DNA from: Candidatus Borrarchaeum weybense
GTDB taxonomy: Archaea; Asgardarchaeota; Sifarchaeia; Borrarchaeales; Borrarchaeaceae
Direction: 5' to 3'
Length of the DNA stretch: 64,000 bases
Assembly (NCBI GenBank): GCA_019057385.1
Contig: JAHQJS010000007.1
Location: 128,001-192,000 of the forward strand
A program made the translations under genes and the position numbers. Shown here piece after piece: positions 6,109 to 25,159 of the stretch (within the stretch, counting starts at the first letter, position 1; every line of letters begins with the position of its first letter). Below the pieces are notes generated by a model that was given only the letters and a program-made list of their open reading frames with translations, did not search any database and had not been told where the DNA came from.

Positions 6109-6927
6109 TTAAAATGTGGCATCTAAAGCCATAGTAGCTACTCCTAACTCAAGCGAGTCGTGAATTAAATTTTTACTTGTGAGTTTTTTGAGTGCCTTAC
6201 TAGTTAGACCTAGCGGGATCCCAGGAGCAACAACAAATGTATCTTCTTTTATCATATCTTCAGAAATAATGTCTGGCACTGGAGTTGCATCAACTATCAA
6301 ATTTGCATACCGCAATCCTTCTTTGATTGAGTGAACAATATGAACGCGATCTTTAAATTTACGTTTGGCATATCCAATCTTTACTTTATCAATATCATAT
6401 AGAACCACATTAGCGCATCTATCAAGTAATTCAATCGTAGCAGCTTGTCCTACGGGACCATATCCTATGATAAAAACAGTTTTACTTTTTATTCCCTTCG
6501 CTGCGAGATCCAATGCTGCGATATAAGCCTTTCCTGTACATGCAGAATTTTCAGAAACATAACGAGTTCTGAGATTAACTGCAATAAAATGATTATCATC
6601 CGCAGCGAATAAAACGTCTGCTTGTTTAGATATCGCTTCAGCGAAACCTCCAACGTCTTTTTTCTTGGTTATATAGGTATCTAAACCGATATGGGTTAAT
6701 ATGGCTAATATTGCATCAGTAAAACCTAGTATTGTGCCTTTTCCAGCAGTTATAGGTATTATTGCTGCAGTTTTCTTACTTAAAACTGAGGTGATATCAT
6801 TTCTAATGTTAAGAGTATGTTTTGCAATTCCTAATAAAGAATGTTCAGTTTTTTTAATCAGCTCTTGTTCATAGTTTTGTAAATCTATTGGGATATTTTT
6901 CACTTGTTCAGGAGTGAGGCGTGTCAT
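6109..6927 (-). CDS. pylD: 3-methylornithyl-N6-L-lysine dehydrogenase (pyrrolysine synthase)
   Basis: MTRLTP start, PITAGKGTILGF, FAADD, Rossmann GYGPVG, HDSLELGVATM end; directly follows pylC. Confidence 0.9.
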   Translation of the reverse strand: MTRLTPEQVKNIPIDLQNYEQELIKKTEHSLLGIAKHTLNIRNDITSVLSKKTAAIIPITAGKGTILGFTDAILAILTHIGLDTYITKKKDVGGFAEAISKQADVLFAADDNHFIAVNLRTRYVSENSACTGKAYIAALDLAAKGIKSKTVFIIGYGPVGQAATIELLDRCANVVLYDIDKVKIGYAKRKFKDRVHIVHSIKEGLRYANLIVDATPVPDIISEDMIKEDTFVVAPGIPLGLTSKALKKLTSKNLIHDSLELGVATMALDATF

Positions 6928-6953
6928 ATTCTTCCACTTATTTAATTAGGCTT

Positions 6954-8108
6954 TTAGTCAATATAGTTTGTAAGTTTAAACTCTGACATAATTTCACTAA
7001 TTACCGCAACCATTTTCTTTTTTGCCTCTTCTAGAGTTTTATCTCTGACAATTAGTGTTGCAACACGTTTTCCATCAGCATTATTGTTGCTAAAAAAGTT
7101 CGTAATGGCCTCATCTGCACCGAAAAATCCTAGTTTATGTGTTAGATTTTTAGCATCGGTCAGAATATGCTCGCCCTGAACCTTCAATGAATGGTCAACA
7201 ATGCAAACATGTTGATATACGACTCCCTTTTCAAAACCAACTTTATTCGATGACAAAGTGTTTTCAAGGAACATATTTGCAAGTTCCTTGACGATATTTA
7301 TGCCAGTAGAGTGAAAAACGACAGTAGGTGTTTGACTGGGTAATCTTGCATTTATTTCATTAGTTTTTAGTGAGTTAGAAGGAGAAACTATACTTTGCAC
7401 GTCTGTAAGTCCATGCAAGTTAAGACCTTTTGCGATTTTCAAACCAGTTTCGATAAATTTATTCTTAACATGATTCGAAAGAACTGTTGGCGCTGTTACT
7501 CTTTTACATCCATAAGATTCATCAAATTCCAAATCTGTAACTTGAAATGGTATCGAGTTTCCATTCTTTGCAAGAACTTCTAAAGAAACCGCAAGTCCTT
7601 CGACAAATTCTTCCACGATAACTTCGTGATCAATTTGTCTTACTTCATTTATAATGTGAGGTAATTGTGATGGTGTTGACACCTTAAAGATACTAATACT
7701 GCCACTCAAACGAGCAGGTTTTACTATTAGAGGAAATGTTGCATCAGGCCAAGGCTTCGGAACAGCAACGTGTTGACTTGTTAAAAAGTTTTTGGAGCGA
7801 GTCTTATTAGATGTTACCCAAAAAGCGTTAGTGTCTTGTAAAAAGTGTATCAGTCCCTTGCACGTCTTTTCCAGAAAAACAAGCGTTTTCATATTTTCAG
7901 TAGTTGGTAAAACTGCATCTACTGTTTTACAAATCTTCTTAAAGAGATTTTCTTGCTTTATCACGTCAAAAACATAATTTTCATCAACAATAGTAGAGGC
8001 AGGAGTATTAGGTTCTCTATCAATTAATATTGTAGTTATATCCGCCTTTTTCGCAAGATAGGCTGCTTCAAGTCCCTGTAAACGTCCACCTATCAAGGCT
8101 AACCTCAA
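6954..8108 (-). CDS. pylC: 3-methylornithine--L-lysine ligase (ATP-grasp)
   Basis: LIGGRLQGLEAAYLAKKA, EINARLPSQTPTVVFHSTGIN, GEHI, FFGADEAITN. Probable TTG start at 8108 after GAGGT. Confidence 0.92.
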   Translation of the reverse strand: MRLALIGGRLQGLEAAYLAKKADITTILIDREPNTPASTIVDENYVFDVIKQENLFKKICKTVDAVLPTTENMKTLVFLEKTCKGLIHFLQDTNAFWVTSNKTRSKNFLTSQHVAVPKPWPDATFPLIVKPARLSGSISIFKVSTPSQLPHIINEVRQIDHEVIVEEFVEGLAVSLEVLAKNGNSIPFQVTDLEFDESYGCKRVTAPTVLSNHVKNKFIETGLKIAKGLNLHGLTDVQSIVSPSNSLKTNEINARLPSQTPTVVFHSTGINIVKELANMFLENTLSSNKVGFEKGVVYQHVCIVDHSLKVQGEHILTDAKNLTHKLGFFGADEAITNFFSNNNADGKRVATLIVRDKTLEEAKKKMVAVISEIMSEFKLTNYID

Positions 8109-8118
8109 AATGATGACC

Positions 8119-9210
8119 TCAAGATAATCGTTTTCTTTGTTGGATGAATTCAATGTATTGATGTGTAGATGCTAGTTTTAATCCTATACTGTCTAAGTAC
8201 GGTTTAATAGTTTGAATGCTTCTAATTCCTTGATTAATTCCCAGATTAGCTGCTGCTACACCCAATAATCCTGATGTTTTTGGGATGAGGGAGGTGATCA
8301 CATTAGCCCCCACCAATAGACGTAATTGAAGCCCCTTTAAACCATCAATATCGAAAGAAGCCGGAATAAGTTTGTCTGGGCAAATTAAACGCAGAAGTGC
8401 AATAGACTTCATTTCCTCCAAGATTGGAGGCGAGATGTTTTGCTCCATTGGAGTTCCTTGTTGCGGTACAAATCCCATTACACGTACTTGATCTGCTCCA
8501 ATATCCTTGATGGTGAAAAACGAATTAATTCGATCTTCTTCTGATTCTCCTACACCTAGAAGAATACCCTCTTCTATTAATAAGCCCATTTCCTTAGCGA
8601 AAATTTTTGATTTCATCCGTTCGTCATAATCTTGATTAATACGCAATTTTGCGAAAAGTGCACGATTGTGTGTTTCTTGGTAAAGAGCATACCATTCTGC
8701 AATTTCAGCAATTTTCCTTAAAACATGTTTAGGGACAACTCCAGGAGAGACCATTAGTGGTAATTCTGTAGCCTCTTTCACAGTAGATAAAGCAGAAAGC
8801 AAACCTGAATAATTTGGCTTGAAAAAAAGTGGATCCTCTCCTGATGTCATATCGATTAAATGCACACCAGATTCTTTCAATTTTTCTGCTTGACTAATAA
8901 TTTCCTCAGGAGTTTTTCTGTAGCGTAGACATTTAGAATTTAGCTTCCTAAAATAGCAGAAACTGCAAGAATTTTTGCAATATGTTGTAAAATAGATGAA
9001 TCCATAAGCAAATACTTTATTTTCAAAATATCTTACACGGAGTTCATTAGCTGCAGAAAACAATGCAAAGATATCATTTGGATGGCTTGTTTTTAGTAAA
9101 TAAAGAGCATTCCGTCTATTCAGTTCTTCACCGTTTAATACTTCTCTTAAAATTTCATAGATCTTTGGGTCCTTTGGATTTGATTCAAAGGAGCTGAAAA
9201 AACTTTCCAT
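8119..9210 (-). CDS. pylB: Methylornithine synthase (radical SAM lysine mutase)
   Basis: YGFIYFTTYCKNSCSFCYFR (CxxxCxxC), GVHLIDMTSGEDP, YALYQETHN, RVMGFVPQQGTP, LIPASFDIDG, GANVITS. Confidence 0.93.
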   Translation of the reverse strand: MESFFSSFESNPKDPKIYEILREVLNGEELNRRNALYLLKTSHPNDIFALFSAANELRVRYFENKVFAYGFIYFTTYCKNSCSFCYFRKLNSKCLRYRKTPEEIISQAEKLKESGVHLIDMTSGEDPLFFKPNYSGLLSALSTVKEATELPLMVSPGVVPKHVLRKIAEIAEWYALYQETHNRALFAKLRINQDYDERMKSKIFAKEMGLLIEEGILLGVGESEEDRINSFFTIKDIGADQVRVMGFVPQQGTPMEQNISPPILEEMKSIALLRLICPDKLIPASFDIDGLKGLQLRLLVGANVITSLIPKTSGLLGVAAANLGINQGIRSIQTIKPYLDSIGLKLASTHQYIEFIQQRKRLS

Positions 9211-9311
9211 TTGAAGCCATCCTTAATGAGGAAGAAGATAAAAGGTTTTTTCTAGACTTTTATTAAATGCCACTTAAAGTAATTTACTCGGGATTACAAA
9301 AAAAGAAGTTT

Positions 9312-10571
9312 TTAGAGTTTATATATGCGCCTTGTGTTTTCTGATAAGATAAGCTTCGCGAATTTATACGCCTCATCTTCATTGATAGCCCCAAATTCGA
9401 TAAATTGTGATAGTACACGAGCTAATGCCTTTTTCGCAATTTTTGCTCCTAACCAATAAAGTTCAGGGGTATTAAATGCATCGCTACCAATCATAACTTT
9501 TGTTAGGGGTGCAAATTCTAAGGTTCTCATTAAATTCGTTGTAGATCCAGCACTCGTAAATGGAAACATCACTGATAATTCAAGATAGACGTTAGGGAGT
9601 ATATTCAGCAGATTTGTAGCCTCAGAGACATAGGGAAACCCTGCATGCGCTAAGATAATCTTTGCATGTCTTATTTTTTTGTCTCTTAAGAACTTAAATA
9701 GGCAAACTGGATTACATTGATCCACCAGTGTATCCACATCTCCAATGCCAGTATGAAACTGAAAGGGAAGATCTAATTTGATACATTTCTCCACTGTTCG
9801 CCATATCAGAAAATCACGAAGATTTTTTAGTCCCCATCGCTCAACTTCTGGAGATTTATCCTGATGATACTTGATAAAATCGTTTCTAGCATCAGACTCA
9901 TCTGGATTTCTTATGTTTAGCCCAGTACGATATGCAACAATCGATTTAAATCCGCGAGAATTGTATTTAGTAATTGCTGTATTCATTTCATTATCATAGT
10001 TAACAAGAAATTCATCAAAATCTGAAGAAACAAGAAGTGCATTCTTAATCAGATTTTCAATTCGACTAAATCGTACAACTTGGATAGGTACTAATTGTTC
10101 GAATTCTGACCATTCTATTGTTTTAAGAGGTTTATCCACGGCGATCTCAGAAAACCCATCATCAATAATCAGCGCCTCAAGGCGTGCATCTGTAAACAAC
10201 TCGATTAAATAGCTTCTAAAATCTACTGCTTTTTGATTTCTTATGTTAATTATAGTATCTAAATCATCAGCACAATTAAAAAACTGTGCAAGTTCATGTA
10301 ACATCTGTCTGTAAAAAAGAGCATGTTTCGCATGGTATTGAAGTTCCTGTAAAGTTTGTGCGACTCTATATTTTTGATCCAGTTCAACTTTTTCCTTATT
10401 TGAAGCTTTGTTGTATTCTTCAAGAATTGATGTCGGAATTAAAAAATCTGGATAAAAAGATCCGAAATTTATGTCTTGGGCGAAATTTTCTGCAGTAAGA
10501 GTCTTGCTTATATCTTCTCTAAAAACATGACAATGTGTATCAATAACGGGATATTCAGATAAATCCAGCAA
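9312..10571 (-). CDS. Amidohydrolase_2-family protein resembling the FluG/NodGS N-terminal domain
   Basis: IDTHCH, FKSIVAYRTGL, QFHTGIGD, LAHAGFPY, PNVYLELS, KVMIGSDA...PELYWLGA. Confidence 0.82.
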   Translation of the reverse strand: MLDLSEYPVIDTHCHVFREDISKTLTAENFAQDINFGSFYPDFLIPTSILEEYNKASNKEKVELDQKYRVAQTLQELQYHAKHALFYRQMLHELAQFFNCADDLDTIINIRNQKAVDFRSYLIELFTDARLEALIIDDGFSEIAVDKPLKTIEWSEFEQLVPIQVVRFSRIENLIKNALLVSSDFDEFLVNYDNEMNTAITKYNSRGFKSIVAYRTGLNIRNPDESDARNDFIKYHQDKSPEVERWGLKNLRDFLIWRTVEKCIKLDLPFQFHTGIGDVDTLVDQCNPVCLFKFLRDKKIRHAKIILAHAGFPYVSEATNLLNILPNVYLELSVMFPFTSAGSTTNLMRTLEFAPLTKVMIGSDAFNTPELYWLGAKIAKKALARVLSQFIEFGAINEDEAYKFAKLILSENTRRIYKL

Positions 10572-10769
10572 AAGAAACCCTCTCTATTGTTAGGTAAAAA
10601 AACATAACAAGTTGGTTCTTTTTAAAAAATATTCGGTCGATTAACATTCTGCCTTTAGAAGCAATTATTCTATTTTTAACTTAGGAAAAAAAGAAGTGAG
10701 ATTGTAGAGAAAAAACTCTTAAGTTGTTGTGTTGCACTCTATGAGGTCTCCATCGTTGTATTTTCAGTA

Positions 10770-11309
10770 CTATGCAAAACTATCTATGATTTCATTCGTA
10801 GAATTTATTTTTGCGTTATAGATATCCTCAAGATATTTTAGACCTTGTTCGTGTTCTTCTTTAGTGAATGTTCCTGTCCCATCAGAAGCAATTACGATTT
10901 TGTATCCTCTAAAGAATGCACCAGCCGCAGTATGGCGATCACATATATTAGTATGCATCCCAGTTATGATTACGGTATCAGAATGCAGATCTCGCAATAA
11001 TGAATCGAGTCCGGTCTCAAAAAATCCGCTATATGTCCTCTTTTCAATGATATAATCGTTTGGTGTTGGATCAAGCTCGGGAATGACTTCTGCACCCTTT
11101 GAACCTTTCATTGCATGTGGACCCCATTTTTTTAGTTCACTGTCATACTGAAGATGCGCATCATTGCAGTAAACTACTGGCAAATCATGTTCTCTTGCAG
11201 CATTGAGAAGCTTTTGTATCGAAGGGATGATTTCTTGAGCTGTATCGCATCTTAATTCACCAGTTACAAAATCATTTAGCATGTCTATAACTAAAATGGC
11301 GGGTTTCAT
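10770..11309 (-). CDS. pncA: Cysteine hydrolase, probable nicotinamidase
   Basis: VIDMLNDF, DAH, WGPHA, EKRTYSGF, GMHTNICD; divergent from a nicotinate PRTase gene. Confidence 0.78.
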   Translation of the reverse strand: MKPAILVIDMLNDFVTGELRCDTAQEIIPSIQKLLNAAREHDLPVVYCNDAHLQYDSELKKWGPHAMKGSKGAEVIPELDPTPNDYIIEKRTYSGFFETGLDSLLRDLHSDTVIITGMHTNICDRHTAAGAFFRGYKIVIASDGTGTFTKEEHEQGLKYLEDIYNAKINSTNEIIDSFA

Positions 11310-11509
11310 TTCTCTTTAAATACCTCCTTTTTATTTAGAGAAGTAAATGTCATTATATGCTATTAGCTACATCGCTAGAGGCAAAAAATGGTGAAAAATC
11401 GAAAAATATGGCAAAAAATACCGCAATCAATGTTCGCATTAAATATAAATATATAATTCTTATCACGGTAAGCAAATCAATTTATTGTATCTTCCTTGAG
11501 TGGAAAACT

Positions 11510-12721
11510 ATGAGACGATTCAATTATTGTGATGAAAACGAAATACTTGATGGACGAGCAACTGATGCGTATTTTTTGAGGACTTTTGAAGTTCTTAAGG
11601 CTAAACGTATTGACAAAAGGGTAGTTATGGAAGCCATGATTAAAGGCTTTCCTGATAAAGACTACAACTTCGGTGTTTTTTCGGGAATTCAAGAAGTTAT
11701 CAATTTGTTAAGTTATGTCGCTGAGAATGTAGCAGAATCTAACTCTTTAAATGTCTGGGCAATGCAAGATGGTGAGATATTCTTTCCAAATGAACCTGTT
11801 CTTCGAATTGAAGGAAGATATACTGATTTCGGCATATATGAAACCGCCATTTTAGGGTTCATTTCTTATGCTTCTGGTATTGCAACAAAAGCTGTTAGGT
11901 CTCGAATTGTTGCCAATGACAAACTTGTTTTTAGTTTTGGGACCAGAAGACTTCATCCAAGTGTAGCACCAGTAATAGAACGCGCTTGTTATGCTGGAGG
12001 ATTTGATGCTGTGTCCAGTATTGTTGGAGCAGAATATATGGGTAAGAACGCAGTAGGGACAATGCCACATGCATTAATGTTACTTTTTGGCAACTCAGCG
12101 GATGCGTTTCATGCTTTTAATGAGGTATTACCAAAAGAAGTCCCAAGAATTGCTCTCGTTGATACATACGGATCCCCAAAGGAAGAAACATTACTTGCCC
12201 TCGAATGCATGGGTCCAAACCTTTATGGCGTACGGGTTGATAGTGGAAATCTACTCAAAGTTGGAAAGGAATTGCGCTGGGAGTTGGATATTCGAGGAAG
12301 AGAAGATGTAAAATTATTTGCGAGTGGTGGATTAGACGAGTATGAAGTTAAGAGACTTGCAGAGGTTTACGATGGATTTGGTATAGGCACTAAAGTAGCC
12401 AATGCTCCCGTTATGGATTTTGCATTGAAAATCGTAGAAGTAGATGGAATACCAAGAGCAAAAGTAGGAAATTATAGTGGAGCAAAGGATGTTTATCGAT
12501 TGAAAAACGAATTTCGCGACCTCGTTGTTCCCAAGGGTAAGGAAATAACAAATGGGTATAAACCTTTACTTCACCAAGTCATAAGAGATGGGAAGGTAAT
12601 AAAAGCCTTTGAATCCGTAGATGATGCCAGAGAAAGAGTGCTTTCTCAGATTAAGAGGCTTCCTGACGATTTAAAAAGCTTGTACAAAAAAGATGGCGAT
12701 AGAGTAAAGTTTTTTTCATAG
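11510..12721 (+). CDS. pncB: Nicotinate phosphoribosyltransferase
   Basis: TDAYF, FGTRR, GTMPHA, LVDTY, GVRVDSG, FASGGLDE, FGIGT. ATG at 11510 preferred. Confidence 0.9.
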   Translation: MRRFNYCDENEILDGRATDAYFLRTFEVLKAKRIDKRVVMEAMIKGFPDKDYNFGVFSGIQEVINLLSYVAENVAESNSLNVWAMQDGEIFFPNEPVLRIEGRYTDFGIYETAILGFISYASGIATKAVRSRIVANDKLVFSFGTRRLHPSVAPVIERACYAGGFDAVSSIVGAEYMGKNAVGTMPHALMLLFGNSADAFHAFNEVLPKEVPRIALVDTYGSPKEETLLALECMGPNLYGVRVDSGNLLKVGKELRWELDIRGREDVKLFASGGLDEYEVKRLAEVYDGFGIGTKVANAPVMDFALKIVEVDGIPRAKVGNYSGAKDVYRLKNEFRDLVVPKGKEITNGYKPLLHQVIRDGKVIKAFESVDDARERVLSQIKRLPDDLKSLYKKDGDRVKFFS

Positions 12722-12831
12722 CTATATTCTTTTTTGGGAACAACAATGTTGGGACAAATTATGTTTCAAAATTCACGAGAGAACTGTATACCTTCTTCTT
12801 GTATAGGTTTTAAAGCAAAGTTAAACGAGAT

Positions 12832-13878
12832 TTATTTGATGAGATAGATGTATTGACGTGTATCTCTTAATGAACTAGTTTTTATGATTAGATCATTTTT
12901 CAGTAGATAGTTTATACTAGATCGAACAGTTCTGGCAGGGAGCATAGTCATTTCGATAATCTCTTTTTGTGTTAAGCGACCTTCATATTTAAGAAGTGTG
13001 TGAATAAATTTAGCTGAAGGTGGAGCTGTTTTAGGCATTAAATCTATTGTTTCGTATTTCTTTCGTAATTTTTGAAAGATCTTTGAATTAACTTCCCTTT
13101 CGAGTCGAATGAAGTGTGCTGGAACTTCAGCCTTTGTTATGTTTATGATATCAGCATTCAAATCAACTCTTATTCTTCCATCAACAATTGCCTGACATTT
13201 TGATGAACTAGAGATATCTTTGATTGTTATCGTGCTCAAATTATTTACAATGAATGGTTTATGTGTTTGTTTTAAAGAACAAATAGGCACAATTACGAAT
13301 ACATTTGCCCCTTCCGATACAATAGGTCCTCCAGCTGAAAGTGCATAACCCGTTGATCCAGAGGGTGTTGAAATGATCACTCCATCAGCAGAATCACGCC
13401 ATATCAACTCGTCATCAATTATTAAAGCATATCTAATAACTGTAGCACTCATTTTGGCATTTACTGTCAATTCGTTAAGAGAGAATGGCAGATATTCACC
13501 ATTTATTTCTATAGCCAATCGTGTGCGTTCTTCTACAAAATAATTCTCTTTTTCGATCTCTAGTATGCTTTTTTCGAAGTTTTTGATATCAGTTTCTGCT
13601 AAGAACCCAATATCCCCGAAACTGACACCTAACACAGGAAGTTGGTTTCTATCTAACTCTCTAAAAGTTTTGAGTATGGTTGCAGCCCCTCCAATAGATA
13701 AAACCAAATCTGCTGTCATTTGACTTAATGGGTGTTCATCAAGGTCGATATTTAGTAATTTTGGGAGTCCTTCTTCTAATTCAATACTATGCTTCCTTTT
13801 TCTTAGAAATGCAATAATATCTTTAACATAATCGAGAATAAGAGCCTCATTCGAAGCACAGCTAATCCCAAATTTCAT
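12832..13878 (-). CDS. NAD-kinase-like protein with degenerate catalytic motif (GGAAT) fused to a C-terminal winged HTH
   Basis: GFL, LNE and DGVIISTPSGSTGYALSAGGP are retained; GGDGT reads GGAAT; C-terminal PPSAK...LTQKEI...RTVR...RDTRQYIY is a MarR-like wHTH. Confidence 0.85.
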   Translation of the reverse strand: MKFGISCASNEALILDYVKDIIAFLRKRKHSIELEEGLPKLLNIDLDEHPLSQMTADLVLSIGGAATILKTFRELDRNQLPVLGVSFGDIGFLAETDIKNFEKSILEIEKENYFVEERTRLAIEINGEYLPFSLNELTVNAKMSATVIRYALIIDDELIWRDSADGVIISTPSGSTGYALSAGGPIVSEGANVFVIVPICSLKQTHKPFIVNNLSTITIKDISSSSKCQAIVDGRIRVDLNADIINITKAEVPAHFIRLEREVNSKIFQKLRKKYETIDLMPKTAPPSAKFIHTLLKYEGRLTQKEIIEMTMLPARTVRSSINYLLKNDLIIKTSSLRDTRQYIYLIK

Positions 13879-13932
13879 AATATAATTCTATGATATATCA
13901 TTTTAAAAAGAGTTGCCTTTATTGACTGTTGC

Positions 13933-14448
13933 TTAAGCAATTGTAATGTTTTCAAAAGCTATATTTCTGGCTTCAATAGCTGTATGAGAGAGATATTCAT
14001 CAAGCCAGGATGAAGCCACCAGCACTTTTACAATTGAATATCCATATTTTTTAGCGAAGTTGATATAATCATCAAGAGTGATTTTCTCACCTTTTTCAAC
14101 CTTGTAGAATGTCTCTTTTTCAAAGTCTAGCATGATCTTCGTGGCTTCCTCTTCGGATAATAAATCGGTTGAATGTTCATTTAAAATTTTTTGTGTCCTT
14201 CTTCCTTGACTTATATTGAGAATCCTTTGCTTAACTAATTCCTGCTGTTCGTTTTCGGGTTCTGGTTTAAGGTGTAGATAAATTTGTTTGCATTGCCGTT
14301 GGATGATTTCTTCAACTGTATTGGTAAAAAGGACTATCATCTTTTCTAACCCCTCTACATAAACCTTAACTAATCCGGAAAGATTTGGATATGCATCGTA
14401 GATCATTTTCTTTAAATATTGAATCTGAGAAATCATTAAAATCACCAT
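13933..14448 (-). CDS. Hypothetical protein
   Basis: 171-aa ORF with plausible composition; no motif recognised. Confidence 0.55.
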   Translation of the reverse strand: MVILMISQIQYLKKMIYDAYPNLSGLVKVYVEGLEKMIVLFTNTVEEIIQRQCKQIYLHLKPEPENEQQELVKQRILNISQGRRTQKILNEHSTDLLSEEEATKIMLDFEKETFYKVEKGEKITLDDYINFAKKYGYSIVKVLVASSWLDEYLSHTAIEARNIAFENITIA

Positions 14449-14592
14449 AAGAAGCTCTCGTTCTTCAGGGCAGGGTTACTTAGTTGCTTCTCATCACTAA
14501 TTGTTTTGAGAGCAGTATCTTGTGTTAAAAAAACTATATAAAGTCATCATTTTTTTAAAAAGCAGCCAATAGATAAAAACGATCATAGTGAG

Positions 14593-15420
14593 CTAGATAT
14601 CTAATCGCCATCCGTTTAAATAACTTAGGCTACGACTAATACGCTTTATATTCTTGAAGTTTTCTTTTAACAGTATCAGTCGTTCAATTCCCACTCCAAT
14701 GCCAGCCCATGGTTCATAAACATTCCAATTTTTGTCTAGTGGATGAGGACCTATGGCGGCAGATGCTATTTCAACTCCTTCAATTGAGACGTCGATTGTT
14801 GTTCCATAAACTAACGAATCAACTTGATGTACCTTATATTCCTTTAACCCAACATTTTTCATAATTAGATCAATCATATAATTGATTCGTTTTTCAGGCT
14901 CTAATATGTCTCCATATTCAACAAGATTCATCATTGTGAATTCTTCAAGATGTTGTTGTCCTGTAGTTTCCTTTCTGAAACATTGTCCGATCTCGAATAT
15001 TTTCACTGGATTTACGAACTTCCTTAGTTGACTCATTAAATGATAAAGACCTGGAGCCAACATGGGACGTAGACAACGTGATTCATCGAGCCAAAAAATT
15101 TGTTTCCAAAGAGAATGGTTCTCTTTAATTTCCATACGTTTGATAAAACTCTTTGAAATGATCACTGGTGTCAATACCTCAACAAATCCTTCAGAAATTG
15201 CAGCTTTTTCAAGTGCTTGCTCAATGCGTTTCAATTCGGGTTTTTTAAACATTAAAAAATTCATTAGGTTTTCACGGTGATATTTTTCAAGTGATGTTGA
15301 TATTTCCTGAAAACGCTTGTCACGTTCGCTTTTCGTTTCAAAACTAAGTAAAAAAAATTCATCAGGAGCATCTAATTCCTTTAACCGTTGTTGTTGTGTT
15401 TTTGAAAAAATAAATGCCAT
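14593..15420 (-). CDS. pylSc: Pyrrolysyl-tRNA synthetase, catalytic (C-terminal) subunit
   Basis: QQQRLKELDA, CLRPMLAPGLY, FEIGQCFRKE, HLEEFTMMNLVE, VYGTTIDV, EIASAAIGPHPLD, GVGIERL, SLSYLNG; ends in TAG. Confidence 0.95.
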   Translation of the reverse strand: MAFIFSKTQQQRLKELDAPDEFFLLSFETKSERDKRFQEISTSLEKYHRENLMNFLMFKKPELKRIEQALEKAAISEGFVEVLTPVIISKSFIKRMEIKENHSLWKQIFWLDESRCLRPMLAPGLYHLMSQLRKFVNPVKIFEIGQCFRKETTGQQHLEEFTMMNLVEYGDILEPEKRINYMIDLIMKNVGLKEYKVHQVDSLVYGTTIDVSIEGVEIASAAIGPHPLDKNWNVYEPWAGIGVGIERLILLKENFKNIKRISRSLSYLNGWRLDI

Positions 15421-15440
15421 TTGATTCTCTCTCTTAAAAA

Positions 15441-15725
15441 TTATTTAAATTTGCGTAAGAATTTAGAGAGCCTCCAGTTTTGAATGTCACATGTCTTGCA
15501 AATCTTTCTAGCCCATCCTCTTCTTAACCATCGTGCAGCGCGGCTTCTTCTTGAATTTCGTGTTAAAATAGACTTATTACAAACTGTCTCTATTTTAAGA
15601 TAAGATCCTGCTATTGAAACATTCTTAACTCCATGAAGTGTTCCGCTTCTTGAAGTCCACAATTTGATCTTTTGTAAGAGTTCATTGAGAGGTGGTCGCT
15701 TTTCTCGAGCTAATTTTATAGTCAA
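15441..15725 (-). CDS. pylSn: Pyrrolysyl-tRNA synthetase N-terminal (tRNA-binding) subunit
   Basis: KIKLWTSRSGTLH...C...RNSRRSRAARWLR...CKTC; TTG start with upstream GGAGG. Confidence 0.92.
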   Translation of the reverse strand: MTIKLAREKRPPLNELLQKIKLWTSRSGTLHGVKNVSIAGSYLKIETVCNKSILTRNSRRSRAARWLRRGWARKICKTCDIQNWRLSKFLRKFK

Positions 15726-15743
15726 AAACTTTCCTCCAACAAG

Positions 15744-15811
15744 CGAAGGCCCCGGGAGTTGAACCCGGCTACAAGGGCTTAGGACCCCTGCGGTCTTTCC
15801 GACCGGCCTCC
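15744..15811 (-). tRNA. pylT: tRNA-Pyl (anticodon CUA at 15780-15782); CCA not encoded
   Basis: Reads GGAGGCC GGUC-GGAAA-GACC G CAGGGG-UCCUAAG-CCCUUG UAG CCGGG-UUCAACU-CCCGG GGCCUUC G. It has a 7-bp acceptor stem, small D loop, 6-bp anticodon stem, 3-nt variable loop and G discriminator, and lies just upstream of pylSn. Confidence 0.93.
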
Positions 15812-15864
15812 ATAATAATTAATACTGCCTCTAAGTCCCCTTCATTAGAGAAAGGTATTGTTAT

Positions 15865-16755
15865 TCACAGAAATTCTCCTTTAGCGATCATTTGCACTTG
15901 GCCCCCTACATATACGTTTATTTTCTTGTTTTCTGTTTCTTCTGCGTTTAAGAATAGCAATGAGGGTCTTCCTATCTCATATCCTTGTTCTGCTCTGATA
16001 TCAATTTTGTTCTGTCCGTAATATCGATGTTTTACTAGATATGCAGCTAAGCAGCCTGCAGCACTTCCTGTGGCAGGATCTTCAGGAACGCCGTAATAAT
16101 AGGCAAACATCCTGACATGAACGTGATTTTCTTCGTACTGAGTCTCGGGGCAAAAGACATGTACAGCTTTAGCTTGTGTTTTTTTAATCAAACGGAAATA
16201 TTCCTCCGTATTGACATTAATTCGTTTTATTGACTTAAGTGTCCGTATTGGAACTATAATGAATGGAACTCCAGTCGACACTTCTTGGATGGGAAATCGA
16301 TTATCTATTTCGTTACTGTCGATATTAAGGACTGTTGATAGTGCATTAATAGACAATTCTGATCCAAAAGTCGGTTCCTTTTGTTTCATCACTAAATTGT
16401 CCAATTCTCCATTTTTATAATGGAGATCGATAGGAATTTGACCAACTTTCAGATTCAAATTCACTAATTCAATAGGTTGCTTGATGATCTCTCTTTGGAT
16501 AATATAGGCAGTGCCTAAAGTAGGATGTCCTGCAAACGGCACCTCACTTGCAGGTGTGAATATTCTTACATCATAACCATTGTTTTCAGGTATATCTGAT
16601 AAAATGAATGTCGTCTCTGAAAAATGCATTTCTTTTGCGATAAGCTGCATCTCTTCATCAGAAAACTTATATCCATCCCTAAAAACCGCTAATTGGTTTC
16701 CTGTGTACTTTTTCTCTGCAAAGACATCTACAATATAGAATTGGTGTCCTTTCAT
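15865..16755 (-). CDS. PhzF-family (DAP-epimerase fold) isomerase
   Basis: VDVFA, GNQLAV, SETTF, RIFTPASEVPFAGHPTLG, EDPATGSAAG, EQGYEIGRPS. Confidence 0.9.
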   Translation of the reverse strand: MKGHQFYIVDVFAEKKYTGNQLAVFRDGYKFSDEEMQLIAKEMHFSETTFILSDIPENNGYDVRIFTPASEVPFAGHPTLGTAYIIQREIIKQPIELVNLNLKVGQIPIDLHYKNGELDNLVMKQKEPTFGSELSINALSTVLNIDSNEIDNRFPIQEVSTGVPFIIVPIRTLKSIKRINVNTEEYFRLIKKTQAKAVHVFCPETQYEENHVHVRMFAYYYGVPEDPATGSAAGCLAAYLVKHRYYGQNKIDIRAEQGYEIGRPSLLFLNAEETENKKINVYVGGQVQMIAKGEFL

Positions 16756-16810
16756 TTTGATCCTCTCCTATTCGAATTTTTACTTAAAGTAATTTTTATA
16801 TATTTCATAA

Positions 16811-16848
16811 ATATGAGGTAACGTTCAATATATGAGGTAACGTCCAAT
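16811..16848. repeat. 19-bp tandem direct repeat in a divergent promoter region
   Basis: ATATGAGGTAACGTTCAAT followed by ATATGAGGTAACGTCCAAT. Confidence 0.85.
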
Positions 16849-16870
16849 TACGAAGAATAGTGTATCAAAA

Positions 16871-18328: not shown

Positions 18329-18359
18329 CCGTATGATACTTCTTTAAATATGAGAGAGC

Positions 18360-19766
18360 TTAAGTAGTTTTTTCAATCTCTTTTACAACCTCTGAAAATA
18401 TTTCTAACCCTTTTTCAAGTAATTCTTTTGTTATAGTCAAGGCAGGGATAAAACGTGCAACATTTATCCAGTGACCTCCCTTCCAAACGATTACACCACG
18501 TTCAAAGCACTTTGCAACGATTTTCTTCAGAAGATCTTCAGCAGGCTTTTTACTATCTTTGTTCTTAACAAATTCTACCCCTAAAAATAGCCCTTTGCCA
18601 CGAACATCACCAATGCAATTAACTTCATCTTGTAGATCTTTTAGCAATTTAAGCGCATAATCGCCAAGTTCTGCGGATCTTTTTAGAAGTTGAGTTTCTT
18701 CTGTGAATTTAATGGCCGCAGCACCTGCAGCACATCCAAGAACATTTCCTCTAAATGTTCCCATGTGCCCACCTGGACCCCACGCCTCATCGAACTCTTT
18801 TTTATACATCATCCCTGCTATTGGGATTCCAATTCCTCCAAGTGATTTCGCCATAGTAATAGCATCTGGTGTAACATCGAAGTGTTCGCAACTCCACCAA
18901 TATGTACCAGTACGTCCGAATCCGGCTTGAACTTCATCACAAACAAATAGAATATCGTTTTCTTTGCAGAGTCTTGCTAAACCCTGAATAAACTCCTTTG
19001 GTGGAATTAGTATACCGCTTTCGCCTTGGATTGGTTCCACAATCATGCCTGCTGGTTGAACGAGACCTGAGTAAGGATCCTTAAAGAGATGTTCGATATA
19101 TCTCAAACATTCCATATCACATTCTTCTGCTGATTCTTTTCCAAAGGGACAACGATAACAATATGGGTATGGAGCATGAACAATGCCTGGAATTAAGGGC
19201 AAGTAGTTCTCTTTGTAACTTTTCTTTGCTGTGGCTGCTAAAGATCCAGATGTTTGCCCATGATATCCACCTTCAAATGTAATTATTCTATAGCCCTTCT
19301 TGTTTACTTTAGCTAGTTTTATGGCTGCTTCCACGGCATCAGAACCCGATGGACCACCAAAAATTATCTTTGAATTGCCTTTCATAGATCCTGGCGCAAT
19401 TCTTGAAAGTGCTTCTAAAATGTCAATACGGGCTTTGGTTGGAATATCTAATGTATGTATAATCTTATCAGCCTGTTTTTTAACTACTTCTAAAACATAG
19501 GGGTTTTGATAACCTACATTGCATACAGAAACACCAGCTGAAAAGTCAACATAGACATTTCCATCAACATCCATTAATGTTGCGCCTTTTGCAGCCTCCA
19601 GAGCAAATGTATAAGTCAGTGGATAACTAACTACATTAGCATCAAGGAGTTCTTGTTTTTCTAAAATCGCACGAGATTTCGGTCCTGGGATTTCTGTTAT
19701 GACTTTTGGAGCTCCTTGAAAATGAAGTTCTTTAAATTCATCTTCTATAATATTATTTCCCTCCAT
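18360..19766 (-). CDS. Class-III PLP aminotransferase (diaminobutyrate/4-aminobutyrate aminotransferase-like)
   Basis: PGPKS, GPSGSDAVEAAIKLA, VEPIQGESG, DEVQAGFGRTG, MAKSLGG, HMGTFRGN. Confidence 0.9.
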   Translation of the reverse strand: MEGNNIIEDEFKELHFQGAPKVITEIPGPKSRAILEKQELLDANVVSYPLTYTFALEAAKGATLMDVDGNVYVDFSAGVSVCNVGYQNPYVLEVVKKQADKIIHTLDIPTKARIDILEALSRIAPGSMKGNSKIIFGGPSGSDAVEAAIKLAKVNKKGYRIITFEGGYHGQTSGSLAATAKKSYKENYLPLIPGIVHAPYPYCYRCPFGKESAEECDMECLRYIEHLFKDPYSGLVQPAGMIVEPIQGESGILIPPKEFIQGLARLCKENDILFVCDEVQAGFGRTGTYWWSCEHFDVTPDAITMAKSLGGIGIPIAGMMYKKEFDEAWGPGGHMGTFRGNVLGCAAGAAAIKFTEETQLLKRSAELGDYALKLLKDLQDEVNCIGDVRGKGLFLGVEFVKNKDSKKPAEDLLKKIVAKCFERGVIVWKGGHWINVARFIPALTITKELLEKGLEIFSEVVKEIEKTT

Positions 19767-19892
19767 GAGCGATTCATTCTATTAATTCAGTTGAAGAGTT
19801 TGTACACATAGTATATAGTATTTAAAAAATAATTCGTTGCGTTTGGAAATAAAAAAAATATGAATTTGTGAAAAAGATGAATGAATAGTAAC

Positions 19893-21236
19893 CTATCTGT
19901 TGTTCACATCACGCAGAACTTCTTCTAATATATTGAGTCCAATATCCAAAAGTTCTTCTGTAATAACTAGGGGTGGCGCGATTCGAATCGTAGAAACCCC
20001 TGCACTAATTATGGCCAGTCCTTTTTTGAAACACTGAAAAATAATTTCTTTTACTTTCTCCTTTGCTGGTTTTTTGGTCTTTCTGTCTTTAACAAGTTCG
20101 ATGCCTATCATCAATCCTTTTCCTCTTACGTCGCCGATTAGTTCATACTTTTCTTTCATTTCATTAAGTCGTTTTAATGTGTGTCCGCCTAATTTAGCCG
20201 CATTATCGAGCAAGTTTTCTTCTTCGATGATATCGAAGGTTGCAATTGCAGCAGCACAAGACACGGGATTACCTCCAAAGGTTGATGCATGAGCACCGGG
20301 CTCCCAATCCATGACATCCTCTTTAGCAATAACTGCTCCAAGTGGCAATCCTGAGGCAATACCTTTAGCAATTGCAATAATCTCCGGTGTAACGTTCCAA
20401 TGCTCAATAGCAAACATTTTACCAGTGCGGGCCATGCCAGATTGAACTTCATCAGAAATGAGTAGCATGTGATATTTAGCCGCTAATTTTCTTAATCGCT
20501 GAAAATAGCCTTCAGGTGGAACTATATATCCTCCTTCACCTTGTATTGGTTCAAATATGAAACCGAGCGTTTCTTCAGGTGGCAAATAGGTTTCAAAAAC
20601 CATTTCGTCGATGAAATCAACGCAATAAAAGTTGCACTCAGGGTATGTTTGTTTGTAAGGACACCGGTAACAGTAGGGATAAGGCACATGAGTGACCCCA
20701 GGGACAAGAGGGAAGAAATATCTTCTCTGAACAACTTTTGATCCTGTTACACTAAGTGCGCCCATCGTTCTCCCATGAAATGCTTTAGTGAAAGCAATAA
20801 TTTGAGGTTTTCTAGTATGCCATTTAGCGACTTTAAGAGATGCTTCAACAGCTTCTGCACCGCTATTCGTGAAAAATATCTTTTTAGGAAAACTCCCAGG
20901 AGTATTATTGTACAGTTTTTGTGCAAGTTCTACGCTTTTTTGGTAATAGAAGTCAGTATTGGAGTAATGAATAAGTTTTGTAGCTTGATGTGTAATCGCA
21001 TTCACTACCTTTGGATGCGAGTGCCCAACATTACATACACAGATTCCTGCGTTAAAATCGATATAAATATTTTCGTCAACATCTTTTATTAGACATCCCT
21101 CAGCGGATTCAGCAACGAGGGGATAAAATCGTGCATAAGACGGCGAGATGTATTTATCATCAAGTTCCAGCAACTTTTTTGCCTTAGGACCAGGTGGTGT
21201 TACCTTGATATTTGGAATAGTTATGTTCTCTATCAA
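19893..21236 (-). CDS. Class-III PLP aminotransferase (acetylornithine/ornithine aminotransferase family)
   Basis: PPGPKA, NSGAEAVE, FHGRT, EPIQGEGG, DEVQSGMARTG, AKGIASG, HASTFGGNP. Confidence 0.9.
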   Translation of the reverse strand: MIENITIPNIKVTPPGPKAKKLLELDDKYISPSYARFYPLVAESAEGCLIKDVDENIYIDFNAGICVCNVGHSHPKVVNAITHQATKLIHYSNTDFYYQKSVELAQKLYNNTPGSFPKKIFFTNSGAEAVEASLKVAKWHTRKPQIIAFTKAFHGRTMGALSVTGSKVVQRRYFFPLVPGVTHVPYPYCYRCPYKQTYPECNFYCVDFIDEMVFETYLPPEETLGFIFEPIQGEGGYIVPPEGYFQRLRKLAAKYHMLLISDEVQSGMARTGKMFAIEHWNVTPEIIAIAKGIASGLPLGAVIAKEDVMDWEPGAHASTFGGNPVSCAAAIATFDIIEEENLLDNAAKLGGHTLKRLNEMKEKYELIGDVRGKGLMIGIELVKDRKTKKPAKEKVKEIIFQCFKKGLAIISAGVSTIRIAPPLVITEELLDIGLNILEEVLRDVNNR

Positions 21237-21530
21237 CTCCAGTCACCTCAAATGATTATTACACAAACACATTAAAAAAACCATAGGATTTCATTTCGAA
21301 CGAAAAGAAGTGGTTTTAGCACTCGATTTTTCGAAAAATGAAGTCTATTCGATATAGAAATTTTTATCTATTCTTGTGAATACACTTGAATTTGATTTCC
21401 ACATGCGAATTTTTAAATATCCTATTTGTAAAGAAACGAACTACATTTACGATTTGGCAAGGGTATTATAAGCAGCATAGTTAAGTCCTGTAAATTTGGC
21501 TTAGAAATTTGGTAGAAGGTGTCATTTAAA

Positions 21531-22889
21531 ATGGCGAATGAAGCCAAGATAATGGAGACAATTGAGAGGGAAAGAATCAAAATAATTCGATTTGTATGGA
21601 TTGGCAATGATGGAGTCATTCGAGCAAAAGCCTCGACAGCGAAACATCTAAAATCACATGTCAAAAGGGGAATCGGGATAGCTAAAGGCATTCAGTCATT
21701 TAATGCATTAGACCATCTAGTACTCGATGGTTCCTTTGGTGCTCCAGCAAAAGAATTTCAAATTTATCCGGATCTACAGACATTTAAGATATTACCTTAT
21801 GCAAAACATTCTGCTCGTTTTATATGTGAATTACTGAATCCCGATTTTGAGCCTTCAGCAACGGACGCTCGCGCATTTTTACGCCGAATCATTTATCAAG
21901 CAAAAGAAATGGGCTTTCTTCCTATGGCGGCTGGGGAATTAGAATATTATCTTACCAAACGGGATGATAGTGGCAATATGATTCAACAAAATAACGAGAA
22001 ATATGGAACGACTACCCAGTACGACTTAGCAAATGATGTAATACAAGATTGGCTAGATACGTTTGAAAAAATGGGACTCGACATAGAACGTGTTATCTCT
22101 GAATACGGCGGTGCACAATACGAAATAACGATAAGATATACAGATGCACTAACTGCTGCCGACAATGTTTTAACGTTCAAAGATGCAGCTAAAGGAGTAG
22201 CTTTGAATCATGGATATTCAACAACTTTCTTGCCCATGCCATTTCCTGGAGGGGCAGGATCGGGAATGCATTTTCACATCAGTTTATGGGATCTCAATGG
22301 GAAGAATAATCTCTTCTATTCAGAAAGTGATGAATATTTCCTCTCTGACACGGCAAAATATTTCGTTGGTGGAATAATGGCTCATCTAAAAGGTTTATGT
22401 GCTGTATGTGCACCAAATCCAAACAGTTACAAGCGTCTTTTACCGCATTCATGGGCACCAGCACATTGTATATGGGGCGTTGATAATCGAGCTGCTGCCA
22501 TAAGAATTCCCACACGTGCAGAAGGAGATGAGGCAGAACCAACGCGAATAGAATTTCGTGTGCCTGATGGCACAGCGAATCCGTACTTCGCTTTAGGTAC
22601 AACCTTGGCTTGTGGCTTAGAAGGAATCAAAAATAAAATAGATCCGCCAGAACCAGCTCATATAGAACCTGGCGACCTGGTGGATGATGATCTTGAAAAG
22701 AAAGGCATTGAGTACTTGCCAAGAACTCTGGGCGAAGCACTTGCAGAATTTAAAAAGGATGCTTTCTTTAAGGAAATTATGGGTGATTTCGGTTTTAATG
22801 AGTTCTATAAGGTCAGAATGTCTGAGTGGAGAGAGTATTGCAGTGTTGTTACTGAATGGGAATTAAAAAACTATCGCGATACGTTTTAA
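21531..22889 (+). CDS. Glutamine-synthetase-like gamma-glutamyl-amine ligase
   Basis: GELEYY, EYGGAQYE, GSGMHFHISL, NSYKRL, NRAAAIRIP, RIEFR. Flap reads SWAP where true GS has YEAP. Confidence 0.85.
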   Translation: MANEAKIMETIERERIKIIRFVWIGNDGVIRAKASTAKHLKSHVKRGIGIAKGIQSFNALDHLVLDGSFGAPAKEFQIYPDLQTFKILPYAKHSARFICELLNPDFEPSATDARAFLRRIIYQAKEMGFLPMAAGELEYYLTKRDDSGNMIQQNNEKYGTTTQYDLANDVIQDWLDTFEKMGLDIERVISEYGGAQYEITIRYTDALTAADNVLTFKDAAKGVALNHGYSTTFLPMPFPGGAGSGMHFHISLWDLNGKNNLFYSESDEYFLSDTAKYFVGGIMAHLKGLCAVCAPNPNSYKRLLPHSWAPAHCIWGVDNRAAAIRIPTRAEGDEAEPTRIEFRVPDGTANPYFALGTTLACGLEGIKNKIDPPEPAHIEPGDLVDDDLEKKGIEYLPRTLGEALAEFKKDAFFKEIMGDFGFNEFYKVRMSEWREYCSVVTEWELKNYRDTF

Positions 22890-22922
22890 TCCAAAGGAGG
22901 GAATAATCTGAGCAATGAACAA

Positions 22923-23555
22923 TTGTTTGAAGGTATTAAAAATTCCATAATTGACCTAGATAGAGAAGAGTGCCTTAGATTAGCACAAGAAGCTCTTGAT
23001 GCTGGAATTAATCCACTTGAAGTTATTGAGAATGGACTAAAGAAAGGAATTCAGATTGTTGGAACGAAGTATGAAGAAGGTGAGTTGTTTATAGTAGATT
23101 TGATGATGGCAGCATCAGCTATGAAAGCTGCAGTCGAACTCCTTGAGCCCCATATTTCGTCAGAAATGAAAGAAAAGGCTAGTGCTGGGAAGATTATTAT
23201 TGGAACAGTTGAGGGCGACATTCATGATATAGGAAAGACCATTGTGTCAACCTTATTAGCTGCCAATGGTTTCGAAGTAATCGATTTAGGTTCAGAAGTA
23301 CCTGCCTCAAAATTTATAGAAAAGATCAAGGAACTCAAACCAGATATCGTTGGAATGTCTGCGCTCCTAACAACTACGATGCCAAAAATGCAGGAAGTTA
23401 TTGAAGCGCTCGAAAAAGAAGACTTGCGTGATGCAGTAAAGGTTATGATAGGAGGGGCTCCTGTTACAAAGGAATTTGCAGCAAAGATTGGTGCAGATGG
23501 CTATGCTAAGGATGCGGAAGAAGCTATAAAATGGGCTAAAGAGCTTGCCTCTTAA
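22923..23555 (+). CDS. mtbC: Methylamine-type corrinoid protein
   Basis: B12-binding motif GDIHDIGK...SALLTTTM...KVMIGGAP with four-helix cap; immediately upstream of mtbB. Confidence 0.88.
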   Translation: MFEGIKNSIIDLDREECLRLAQEALDAGINPLEVIENGLKKGIQIVGTKYEEGELFIVDLMMAASAMKAAVELLEPHISSEMKEKASAGKIIIGTVEGDIHDIGKTIVSTLLAANGFEVIDLGSEVPASKFIEKIKELKPDIVGMSALLTTTMPKMQEVIEALEKEDLRDAVKVMIGGAPVTKEFAAKIGADGYAKDAEEAIKWAKELAS

Positions 23556-23755
23556 ATAGCAATAAACTGTAGGTATTTCTCTATTTTTATTTTTCTTTGG
23601 TCGTTTTTCGAAGGATTCTTGCGTTTTTTTAATCACTTATCCAATATTTTCATTTCTCTAGAATTTCAGAGGAAAGATTTTTTAGGGGATTCTGCTTTTA
23701 CAGATGTTTAAAAAATTGATTACAACAGAGAATCTTCTAGCTAGGAGGTCAACTT

Positions 23756-25159
23756 TTGACCGAATTCACAATGCGTACTGGTACGGGAAAACCGTTATAC
23801 ATGTCTAAAGAACAAATTCGGTCAGACCTCGAAGACGGTGCAAACTGGGCTGCAACAAAAGCAAAGATACCAGAACTGTCAGCTAATGAAATAGATCATA
23901 TCCTTGATATACTCGTGAGACCAGGAAGACAAATTGGAGTTGAACAAGGAAAAGAAATTGTTTTAACTACAGATGGCGGCACCACAAGATATACAGGTAT
24001 TTGCAGATACTCAGCTATGCCTGTATCAAGAGAACAGGCTGTAATAATCGGAGAACGTTTCATTGGTTTCGATACGTTTGAAATTGGACACGCTGACTAC
24101 AGTTTTAGACCAGTAAAAACAATTGCTATGGATGAGGCAACAGTAATCGAGAATACAGAACTTAACAGTGTGATTCCAGTATTCTATGGAGCAATGCCTA
24201 ACCTAGGAATCTATTTCCAATCGCAAGGTGGGAAATGGCCATCTCCTACAGATTTCATGAACGAAGGTAAGATTGACGAGGCAAGGGCGGTTCAAGAGTC
24301 TGCTGCAGAAGATATGACTAATGACATAGTCTACGTAGCAAAAATCTTCGCGGAGACTGGTCTTGACGGTCTTGATATAGATACTACTGCTGCTGCTGGT
24401 GATGCAGATTTCTATGGAACTTTAAAAGCCATTGAGATAATAAAAAAGGAAACTAATTTAGCACTAGAGGTTGGCATGGCTGGCGAAAAAGTATTTGGAT
24501 TACATGCAGATCTTAAATATGATGGTGAACGATTAGCAGGTATGTGGCCACATCAACAAAGTTTGATGGTAGAAAAGGCAGGTGGAGATCTCTTTGGTGC
24601 TGTCATTAATACAGACACAGGTAAATCTTGTCCGTGGAATTTAGCCCGTTCGATAACTTTTGTTAAGGAGGTTATGAAGACAGTCAGTATTCCGGTGCAT
24701 CCTAACATGGGAATGGGTGTCGGTGGAATCCCTATGTGCGAAGTTATTCCAATGGATGTCGTCACTCGATCTGGTGTTGCAATGGTAGAACTTACTAATT
24801 GTGATGGCGTATAGGTAGGAACAGGAGACCCTGTTGGTATGGATTTGGCTTATCGGATGAGCATTGGAATGGGAGGCATCGGCACAGCAGGTGATATAGT
24901 AGCACGCCTTCAAATGACTAAGAGAATGAAACTTGACGCTGCCAAGGAATTTGTTGCTAAAAAATTAGGTGTTGATCAATTCACGCTTCACGATACTCTT
25001 CAAATGAGAGATCTTCGCGATGAACTTGAGCTTGGTTCTGTTACCGCACTTCCAGGAAAGGCCAAAGGTATTGAGGCAAAAGCTAGAATCGCAGATCTGT
25101 TTGATATTAAAATCAATTCTGTGGAAAGGCTTAAGAAGAAACTTTCTTTAGACTTTTAG
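23756..25159 (+). CDS. mtbB: Dimethylamine:corrinoid methyltransferase, 467 aa with pyrrolysine at residue 353 (in-frame TAG 24812-24814)
   Basis: ORFs 23756-24814 and 24839-25159 are in one frame. Read-through gives AMVELTNCDGV-O-VGTGDPVGM, matching the MtbB DGxOxGxGDPxG motif. Also DYSFRPVK, FYGAMPNLG, NMGMGVGGIPM. Confidence 0.94.

Follow-up and report, generated by a model that had tools for sequence, protein, structure and literature searches.

A 64-kb stretch of the genome of Candidatus Borrarchaeum weybense (class Sifarchaeia, Asgard archaea; contig JAHQJS010000007.1 of GenBank assembly GCA_019057385.1; C7:128001-192000 of genome G000 in our collection), hereafter the window, carries the genes of a pyrrolysine (Pyl) system, a dimethylamine methyltransferase gene (mtbB) with an in-frame TAG, and a conserved structured RNA directly behind mtbB. 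The original prediction, made from the letters of the window alone, noted that Pyl had been reported in Sifarchaeia. Sun et al. 2021 (ISME Commun 1:30, PMC9723677) described complete PylSBCD and tRNA in the class, with a note added in proof that covers Ca. Borrarchaeaceae. The source genome is 4.18 Mb long in 8 contigs (GC content, 37%; marker completeness, 100%; estimated contamination, 7%). All genes to make, load and use pyrrolysine are confirmed present, at the following window coordinates.

6109..6927, minus strand: pylD, 3-methylornithyl-N6-lysine dehydrogenase (TIGR03911, 244.5 bits versus cut-off 150)
6954..8153, minus strand: pylC, 3-methylornithine--lysine ligase (TIGR03909, 325 bits versus cut-off 248)
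8119..9210, minus strand: pylB, radical-SAM methylornithine synthase (TIGR03910, 415 bits versus cut-off 348)
14593..15420, minus strand: pylSc, pyrrolysyl-tRNA synthetase catalytic subunit (TIGR02367, 281 bits versus cut-off 178)
15441..15725, minus strand: pylSn, separate tRNA-binding subunit (TIGR03912, 104 bits versus cut-off 51)
15743..15811, minus strand: pylT, tRNA-Pyl(CUA) (ARAGORN)
22923..23555, plus strand: mtbC-like cognate corrinoid protein, B12-binding (TIGR02370, 242 bits versus cut-off 215)
23756..25159, plus strand: mtbB, dimethylamine:corrinoid methyltransferase (TIGR02368, 520 bits versus cut-off 369; Pfam Dimeth_Pyl, 592 bits)
24812..24911, plus strand: Rfam PYLIS_2 match from the in-frame TAG (38.4 bits versus gathering score 36)
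25160..25252, plus strand: conserved structured RNA element of ~93 nt (alignment, folding, covariance model)

Pyrrolysine genes and their host

The three biosynthesis genes are contiguous, with pylB and pylC overlapping and a 26-nt gap between pylC and pylD, and all of them passed their equivalog models (3/3), as had been predicted for pylB-pylC-pylD at 6109-9210. Seven independent curated equivalog models were passed within 19 kb, so chance is no issue. The prediction of pylT-pylSn-pylSc at 14593-15811 likewise held, by ARAGORN and by the TIGR02367 and TIGR03912 cut-offs. PylSc covers TIGR02367 profile positions 1-242 of 242 and matches the catalytic subunit of D. hafniense (3DSQ/2ZNI) over its full length (252 bits to 3DSQ over residues 4-275). 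PylSn aligns over its full length with PylSn of M. mazei (5UD5); both proteins have His and Cys in the same columns, among them a CxxC, and we take these residues to be the zinc ligands. The TAA stop of pylSn lies 20 nt ahead of the pylSc ATG, and the synthetase is thus encoded as two separate genes; the stop codon of pylSc is itself TAG (14593-14595).

The tRNA-Pyl(CUA) was the sole tRNA found by ARAGORN in the window. Its sequence shows the hallmarks of pylT, with 6 bp in the anticodon stem, 3 nt in the variable loop and 5 nt in the D loop; the discriminator base is G. Position 33 of the tRNA anticodon loop is almost universally U; in an alignment with 17 other tRNA-Pyl genes, the loop here reads UCCUAAG, with a C at position 33 that is common to Candidatus Borrarchaeum yapensis. 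C33 also occurs in one Nitrosopumilales-labelled locus, and A33 in two Hadarchaeota loci. The 3' "GC tail" of the tRNA, called unusual in the Pyl passages of Sun et al. (PMC9723677), is read here as the discriminator G followed by a single genomic base, with CCA unencoded.

A maximum-likelihood tree of PylSc paired the window with B. yapensis (support 100/100) and placed the pair as sister to Bathyarchaeia (95/89), in an archaeal clade apart from bacteria (99/92). The split into PylSn and PylSc is therefore no evidence of bacterial origin, although the separate pylSn gene of the original prediction is confirmed. D. hafniense likewise has two separate adjacent genes (2ZNI/3DSQ) with similarity along the full catalytic subunit, but the Borrarchaeum enzyme is only ~45% identical to bacterial PylSc and is archaeal by phylogeny. 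In Guo et al. 2022 (PMC9630628), the archaeal enzymes of the PylSn+PylSc class already include those of two Asgard genomes, grouped with Bathyarchaeota and other TACK sequences.

The Pyl cluster is embedded in a contig of 905 kb that bears Asgard-type genes and has an even GC content. A Ras-family GTPase and an 810-aa leucine-rich repeat (LRR) protein are encoded in the window, and Vps4 adjoins an ESCRT-II gene on contig C4 of the same genome. In our species-genome collection, the nearest PylSc locus is that of B. yapensis Yap2000.bin9.141 (81% identity), whose genome (G004) belongs to the same GTDB genus as that of the window (class Sifarchaeia, Asgard; six species genomes in the collection). 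The Asgard-like host proposed at first is borne out by these genes and this kinship, and the contig bins with neither a methanogen nor a bacterium: it belongs to the Borrarchaeum genus, in a genome with no McrA match. By profile search, PylSc scored above cut-off in 2/400 Asgard genomes, both in this genus. MtbB is found in 5/5 genomes of the genus, with the TAG present wherever a contig end does not cut the gene.

Synteny of the Pyl locus is kept in B. yapensis. Between the two species, dN/dS (the ratio of nonsynonymous to synonymous divergence) was 0.126 for pylSc, 0.137 for pylB and 0.155 for pylC; values of 0.13-0.16 at a dS of 0.47-0.84 mean purifying selection for function. Along the locus, dS is a mosaic (0.03-0.04 for mtbB/mtbC, 0.12-0.29 for most neighbors, 0.84-0.99 for two genes, pylSc and that of the PhzF protein adjoining pylT), which points to recombination shuffling alleles. 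Relaxed constraint was considered as the cause of the higher divergence of the pyl genes and rejected, since dS is high and dN/dS low.

The mtbB gene with its in-frame TAG, UAG usage and the RNA behind mtbB

MtbB is encoded by a pair of open reading frames (ORFs) that join into one 467-residue protein when the TAG at 24812-24814 (codon 353) is read through, and Dimeth_Pyl and TIGR02368 each match it as a single stretch across the TAG. The codon sits in the motif DG[VIL]-TAG-[VI]G.GD, common to all of the 13 other metagenome MtbB loci translated across the site (13/13), some of which are merely 49-54% identical to the window MtbB; it had been predicted to fall exactly at the MtbB Pyl position, and the shared motif agrees. 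The PYLIS_2 match that starts at this TAG (RF02509, mtbB) has several non-canonical model pairs in the window and is probably coding similarity. The adjoining corrinoid protein scored 226 bits against the MtbC equivalog NF041607, under its cut-off of 350; its adjacency to mtbB supports an MtbC role. Short mtbB contigs (23724-25067) occur in RNA libraries from four sediment and marine studies, and two of them cross the in-frame TAG; they are compatible with transcription and do not prove it.

TAG makes up 22.8% of the stops in 3,005 long non-overlapping ORFs of the genome, against a trinucleotide background of 23.6%, and the distance to a back-up stop is equal after TAG, TAA and TGA stops, with no enrichment after TAG. 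UAG is kept as an ordinary stop, and selective decoding would therefore have to come from regulated pyl expression, release-factor competition or an mtbB-specific signal. A screen for further recoded genes returned 126 in-frame TAG sites with coding-like flanks; by Pfam, 19 of the best 20 of these are adjacent genes. The one exception is a luciferase-like (F420-type) oxidoreductase (C7:743913-744887, locus L147) with a TAG at C7:744624, where two sister species have CAG (Gln). The change to TAG is seen in this species only. The Pfam domain of the protein spans the TAG, and the sequence beyond it is unbroken; a recent pseudogene, an amber codon that is tolerated, or a variant of the assembly could each account for this. 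Neither this amber codon nor C33 of the tRNA is mentioned in the Pyl passages of Sun et al. (PMC9723677).

At its 3' end, mtbB stops at a further TAG (25157-25159), backed up by a TGA 8 codons on. The same terminal TAG is found in 12/12 distinct Borrarchaeum-type sequences with an available 3' end (11 relatives), mostly with a TGA or TAA 8 codons later. The structured RNA element starts directly after it, with the first helix 4 nt later, and folds (RNAalifold) as a three-way junction composed of an 8-bp closing helix, a 10-bp arm with a 6-bp hairpin cap, and a GCAA-loop hairpin; a T-rich tract lies 3' of the closing helix. Folding energy is -33 kcal/mol (z = -3.1). The element is 85-99% identical between sequences, while the preceding 222 coding bases of mtbB are 78-92% identical (third positions, 55-87%) between the diverged sequences. 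It exceeds mtbB synonymous sites in conservation in most pairwise comparisons; in the pair L124/L109, it is no better conserved than the coding DNA. Conservation drops sharply at its 3' end, and the genes downstream vary between genomes.

A covariance model found exactly one copy in each of genomes G000-G003, always behind mtbB, and the element also occurs in 7 metagenome loci, always right after the mtbB terminal TAG. No second copy was found in the source genome with blastn and nhmmer. The covariance model detected none in the sister family, and it gave no convincing match either in 36 Pyl loci from other lineages or downstream of an MtbB with 58% identity. Rfam over 25100-25320 (E<=10) gave chance-level snoRNA/miRNA matches only, with no SECIS (selenocysteine insertion sequence) or other family. 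Substitutions fall in loops or preserve pairing in the small hairpin, and 98% of cells are paired in register, versus 28-55% with the partner slid. Covariation among 10 sequences was not significant (one two-sided change; shuffles equal the score in ~1/4 of trials), because the small hairpin alone varies; structural support comes from folding energy and register. A small ORF across the element was considered and rejected, given conserved in-frame stops and the closing of the only open alternative frame by a TAA in one relative. With RNAduplex, the element formed long loose duplexes with pyl gene starts and the UAG353 region, among which the pyl genes held no high rank; the controls from coding regions were not comparable. 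Over 22800-25700, contigs of the four RNA libraries cover parts of mtbB, end by 25127 and are silent on the element; nor can contigs show transcript ends.

Neighboring genes and methyl metabolism

Other features around the Pyl genes are as follows.

4309..5976, minus strand: APC-family permease (Pfam AA_permease_2, 43.5 bits)
9312..14448, no strand assigned: whole spacer between the two pyl units (five genes)
9312-10571, minus strand: Amidohydro_2 protein in the spacer (profile match)
10770-11309, minus strand: isochorismatase/nicotinamidase in the spacer (profile match)
11357-12721, plus strand: NAPRT in the spacer (profile match)
12832-13878, minus strand: NAD-kinase-like protein in the spacer (profile match)
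13933-14448, minus strand: 171-aa ORF of no known family in the spacer
21519..22889, plus strand: glutamine-synthetase-family ligase (Gln-synt_C, 350 bits)

The identities of the spacer genes agree with the predicted layout of two Pyl units parted by an amidohydrolase and NAD-salvage genes, and their set and order are kept in B. yapensis (locus L025). As accessories of the Pyl system these genes were rejected: none (0) recurs beside pylS in 79 other Pyl loci. NAD-kinase models cover residues 1-274 of the 348 of the NAD-kinase-like protein and leave a C-terminal extension of ~70 aa outside. The permease gene follows pylD in the same orientation, 132 nt downstream, and has no NCBIfam match; it is a candidate importer of lysine or methylamine, with only a putative tie to the Pyl system. 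The ligase is nearest to gamma-glutamylputrescine synthetase (NF045547, 416 bits, under the cut-off of 650). It lies 33 nt upstream of mtbC beside two class-III aminotransferases (18360-22889), an arrangement kept in B. yapensis. The genome is without Pyl-MtmB, and the ligase and aminotransferases may dispose of the monomethylamine left by MtbB.

McrA gave no PF02249 match in the genome (marker completeness, 100%), while control genomes matched, in keeping with the predicted non-methanogenic host. The genome search proposed with the original prediction found one MtbB, no MttB-family gene (profile search), three MtmB-family genes (L002, L003 and L004; contig C4, ~811-946 kb) and two RACo/RamA-like activators, along with five MtrH homologues, six URO-D family genes, Mtd and carbon monoxide dehydrogenase/acetyl-CoA synthase (CODH/ACS; CdhC). 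The MtmB-family genes have no internal stop. The paralogues are 39-41% identical to the L002 copy, and at the position of Pyl in M. barkeri MtmB one of the three has His, while the other two have Leu or a gap. Two of the three adjoin corrinoid proteins. In Methanococcoides methylutens Q3c, MtqB, a non-Pyl MtmB homologue, demethylates tetramethylammonium and choline (PMC13044021). The Borrarchaeum genes resemble MtqB-MtqC in having no in-frame stop and, in 2/3 cases, a neighboring corrinoid protein, and they may be quaternary-amine methyltransferases of this kind; they are only ~40% identical among themselves, and the likeness is one of gene features.

A methyltransferase island at C7:854-882 kb (L117/L118) holds two RamA-like activators, three MtrH, Mtd, a URO-D-like gene with a corrinoid protein, a corrinoid-HTH (helix-turn-helix) fusion and two proteins with MetH-activation domains; many of the methyl-metabolism genes listed above fall within its C7:857-877 kb portion, along with further corrinoid proteins. 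Elsewhere, a URO-D family (MtaA/MtbA-like) gene on C5 (~218.4-220.1 kb; L119, 4409-6112) ends in TAG in frame with, and 12 nt from, a corrinoid-protein gene, and read-through of this TAG would fuse the two.

From these gene identities, we infer the following path as the best supported, including its methyl acceptor and its handling of UAG ambiguity. PylB, PylC and PylD would convert two lysines to pyrrolysine, which the two-piece synthetase PylSn+PylSc would load onto tRNA-Pyl(CUA) for reading of the UAG at mtbB codon 353. MtbB would then remove a single methyl group from dimethylamine and hand it to the adjoining corrinoid protein in its Co(I) form, giving methyl-Co(III)-MtbC, with RamA-like activators holding the cobalt reduced. 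An MtrH-type (or URO-D-type) methyltransferase would pass the methyl group to tetrahydromethanopterin (H4MPT), and CODH/ACS would carry it into acetyl-CoA, or it would be oxidized; no methane would be made.

Interpretation of the system and of its 3' RNA

That this Pyl system exists, how it is laid out, which client it serves and where it falls by phylogeny are already known from publications of 2021-2022; all are reproduced here on a better assembly. In the main text of Sun et al. (PMC9723677), pylS lies ~6 kb from pylBCD with a NAD kinase and hypothetical proteins between, MtbB is the sole gene with an in-frame UAG, MtmB is present without Pyl, UAG accounts for ~21% of stops, Mcr is lacking, and a methylamine-to-acetate metabolism is proposed. 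The layout and client set, thought possibly new in the original prediction, are thus not so. Compared with the Borrarchaeaceae metagenome-assembled genomes (MAGs) described there, the present assembly is much less fragmented, with 8 contigs and a marker completeness of 100%. What is possibly new is the conserved, single-copy, genus-specific RNA element directly behind mtbB: a term search of the main text of Sun et al. gave no mention of the mtbB terminal TAG and the RNA behind it, of PYLIS or of an element in the untranslated region (UTR).

Methanosarcina, with pylTSBCD and mtbB1-mtbC, has the same five pyl functions, an enzyme of this family whose UAG occupies the same site, a cognate corrinoid protein adjoining mtbB and a RamA-type activator in the genome. 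In contrast, Borrarchaeum has a split PylS, an interrupted cluster, no MttB, Pyl-MtmB or Mcr, UAG as a common stop (22.8%), and probably H4MPT via MtrH, not coenzyme M (CoM), as methyl acceptor.

We consider it highly probable that this is a native, working pyrrolysine system of a Borrarchaeum species with essentially one client protein. Several points weigh against this. Pyl at MtbB residue 353 is predicted for this organism from its sequence, the mtbB contigs in RNA libraries could reflect DNA carry-over, and H4MPT is only the putative methyl acceptor, CoM via MtbA having been proposed in the main text of Sun et al. (PMC9723677). No adaptation that would account for the avoidance of harmful read-through is seen in the genome (TAG undepleted, back-up stops after TAG unenriched); the same main text cites <6% UAG stops for the Pyl-using archaea studied earlier. 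Three incomplete genomes of the genus (69-77%) show no PylSc match; two of them carry mtbB with an in-frame TAG, and the third has mtbB cut at contig ends. Assembly incompleteness is likelier here than loss. These three genomes, together with the single conserved client gene, the undepleted TAG stops and the estimated contamination of 7%, would also fit a decaying relic, or a mis-binned fragment of a methanogen or bacterium, unused by its host. That account is very improbable and largely refuted already, for every gene is intact and purifying selection acts on them, the cluster lies within a 905-kb contig bearing Asgard genes, a second species has the same locus, PylSc forms a clade found in Borrarchaeum only, and mtbB occurs in RNA libraries.

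For the 3' element, the default reading is a transcript-end or stability structure. It is reasonably probable that the element is the ordinary end of the mtbC-mtbB transcript, acting as terminator or as a block to exonucleases, or else a small RNA in its own right, with no part in decoding, and that UAG selectivity comes from conditional pyl expression plus competition by the release factor aRF1, as proposed for Acetohalobium and Methanosarcina. The T-rich tract after the closing helix, the position of the element at the limit of conserved synteny and its want of notable complementarity to pyl gene starts all agree with this, and the published model needs no cis signal; terminators, however, are rarely conserved base for base beyond synonymous sites across species and are rarely three-way junctions, and this reading does not account for the constant distance from a conserved TAG. 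A role as an mtbB-specific signal that directs or tunes Pyl decoding, or as a sensor of terminal-UAG read-through or Pyl-tRNA supply, is unlikely. It would explain why one UAG is recoded where 23% of genes end in UAG, and it would suit an element with one copy per genome at a fixed place after a terminal TAG kept in 12/12 distinct sequences, with conservation above the adjacent coding DNA in most pairs and an abrupt 3' limit, a stable fold (z = -3.1) with in-register pairing and pairing-preserving changes, no Rfam family, no counterpart in Pyl loci of other lineages and no mention in the main text of Sun et al. (PMC9723677). On the other side, no Pyl system is known to need a signal of this kind, the element lies ~345 nt downstream of the recoded UAG, its covariation is statistically weak and its transcription presumed, and the data also fit a stability or termination structure at the mRNA 3' end or a gene for a small RNA. 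The placement recalls the archaeal 3'-UTR SECIS, also a structured 3'-UTR RNA of an mRNA with a recoded stop, in a lineage that also uses selenocysteine; the two differ in having no sequence or covariance-model similarity, and a decoding role would rest on analogy. We know of no Pyl-specific elongation factor.

In this near-complete Borrarchaeum genome, a Pyl system known from fragmentary MAGs is found to be native, intact and under selection and, across 400 Asgard species genomes, confined to this genus. The selective reading of one UAG is stated as an unsolved question both in the main text of Sun et al. 2021 (PMC9723677) and in a 2025 Methanosarcina study. For the question of how one UAG is read as Pyl while hundreds of genes stop at UAG, the terminal UAG and the 3' RNA of mtbB offer a concrete, clonable target. 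A recoding role of this RNA, if true, would make it the first functional counterpart of SECIS for pyrrolysine, in a genome where UAG is otherwise a common stop.

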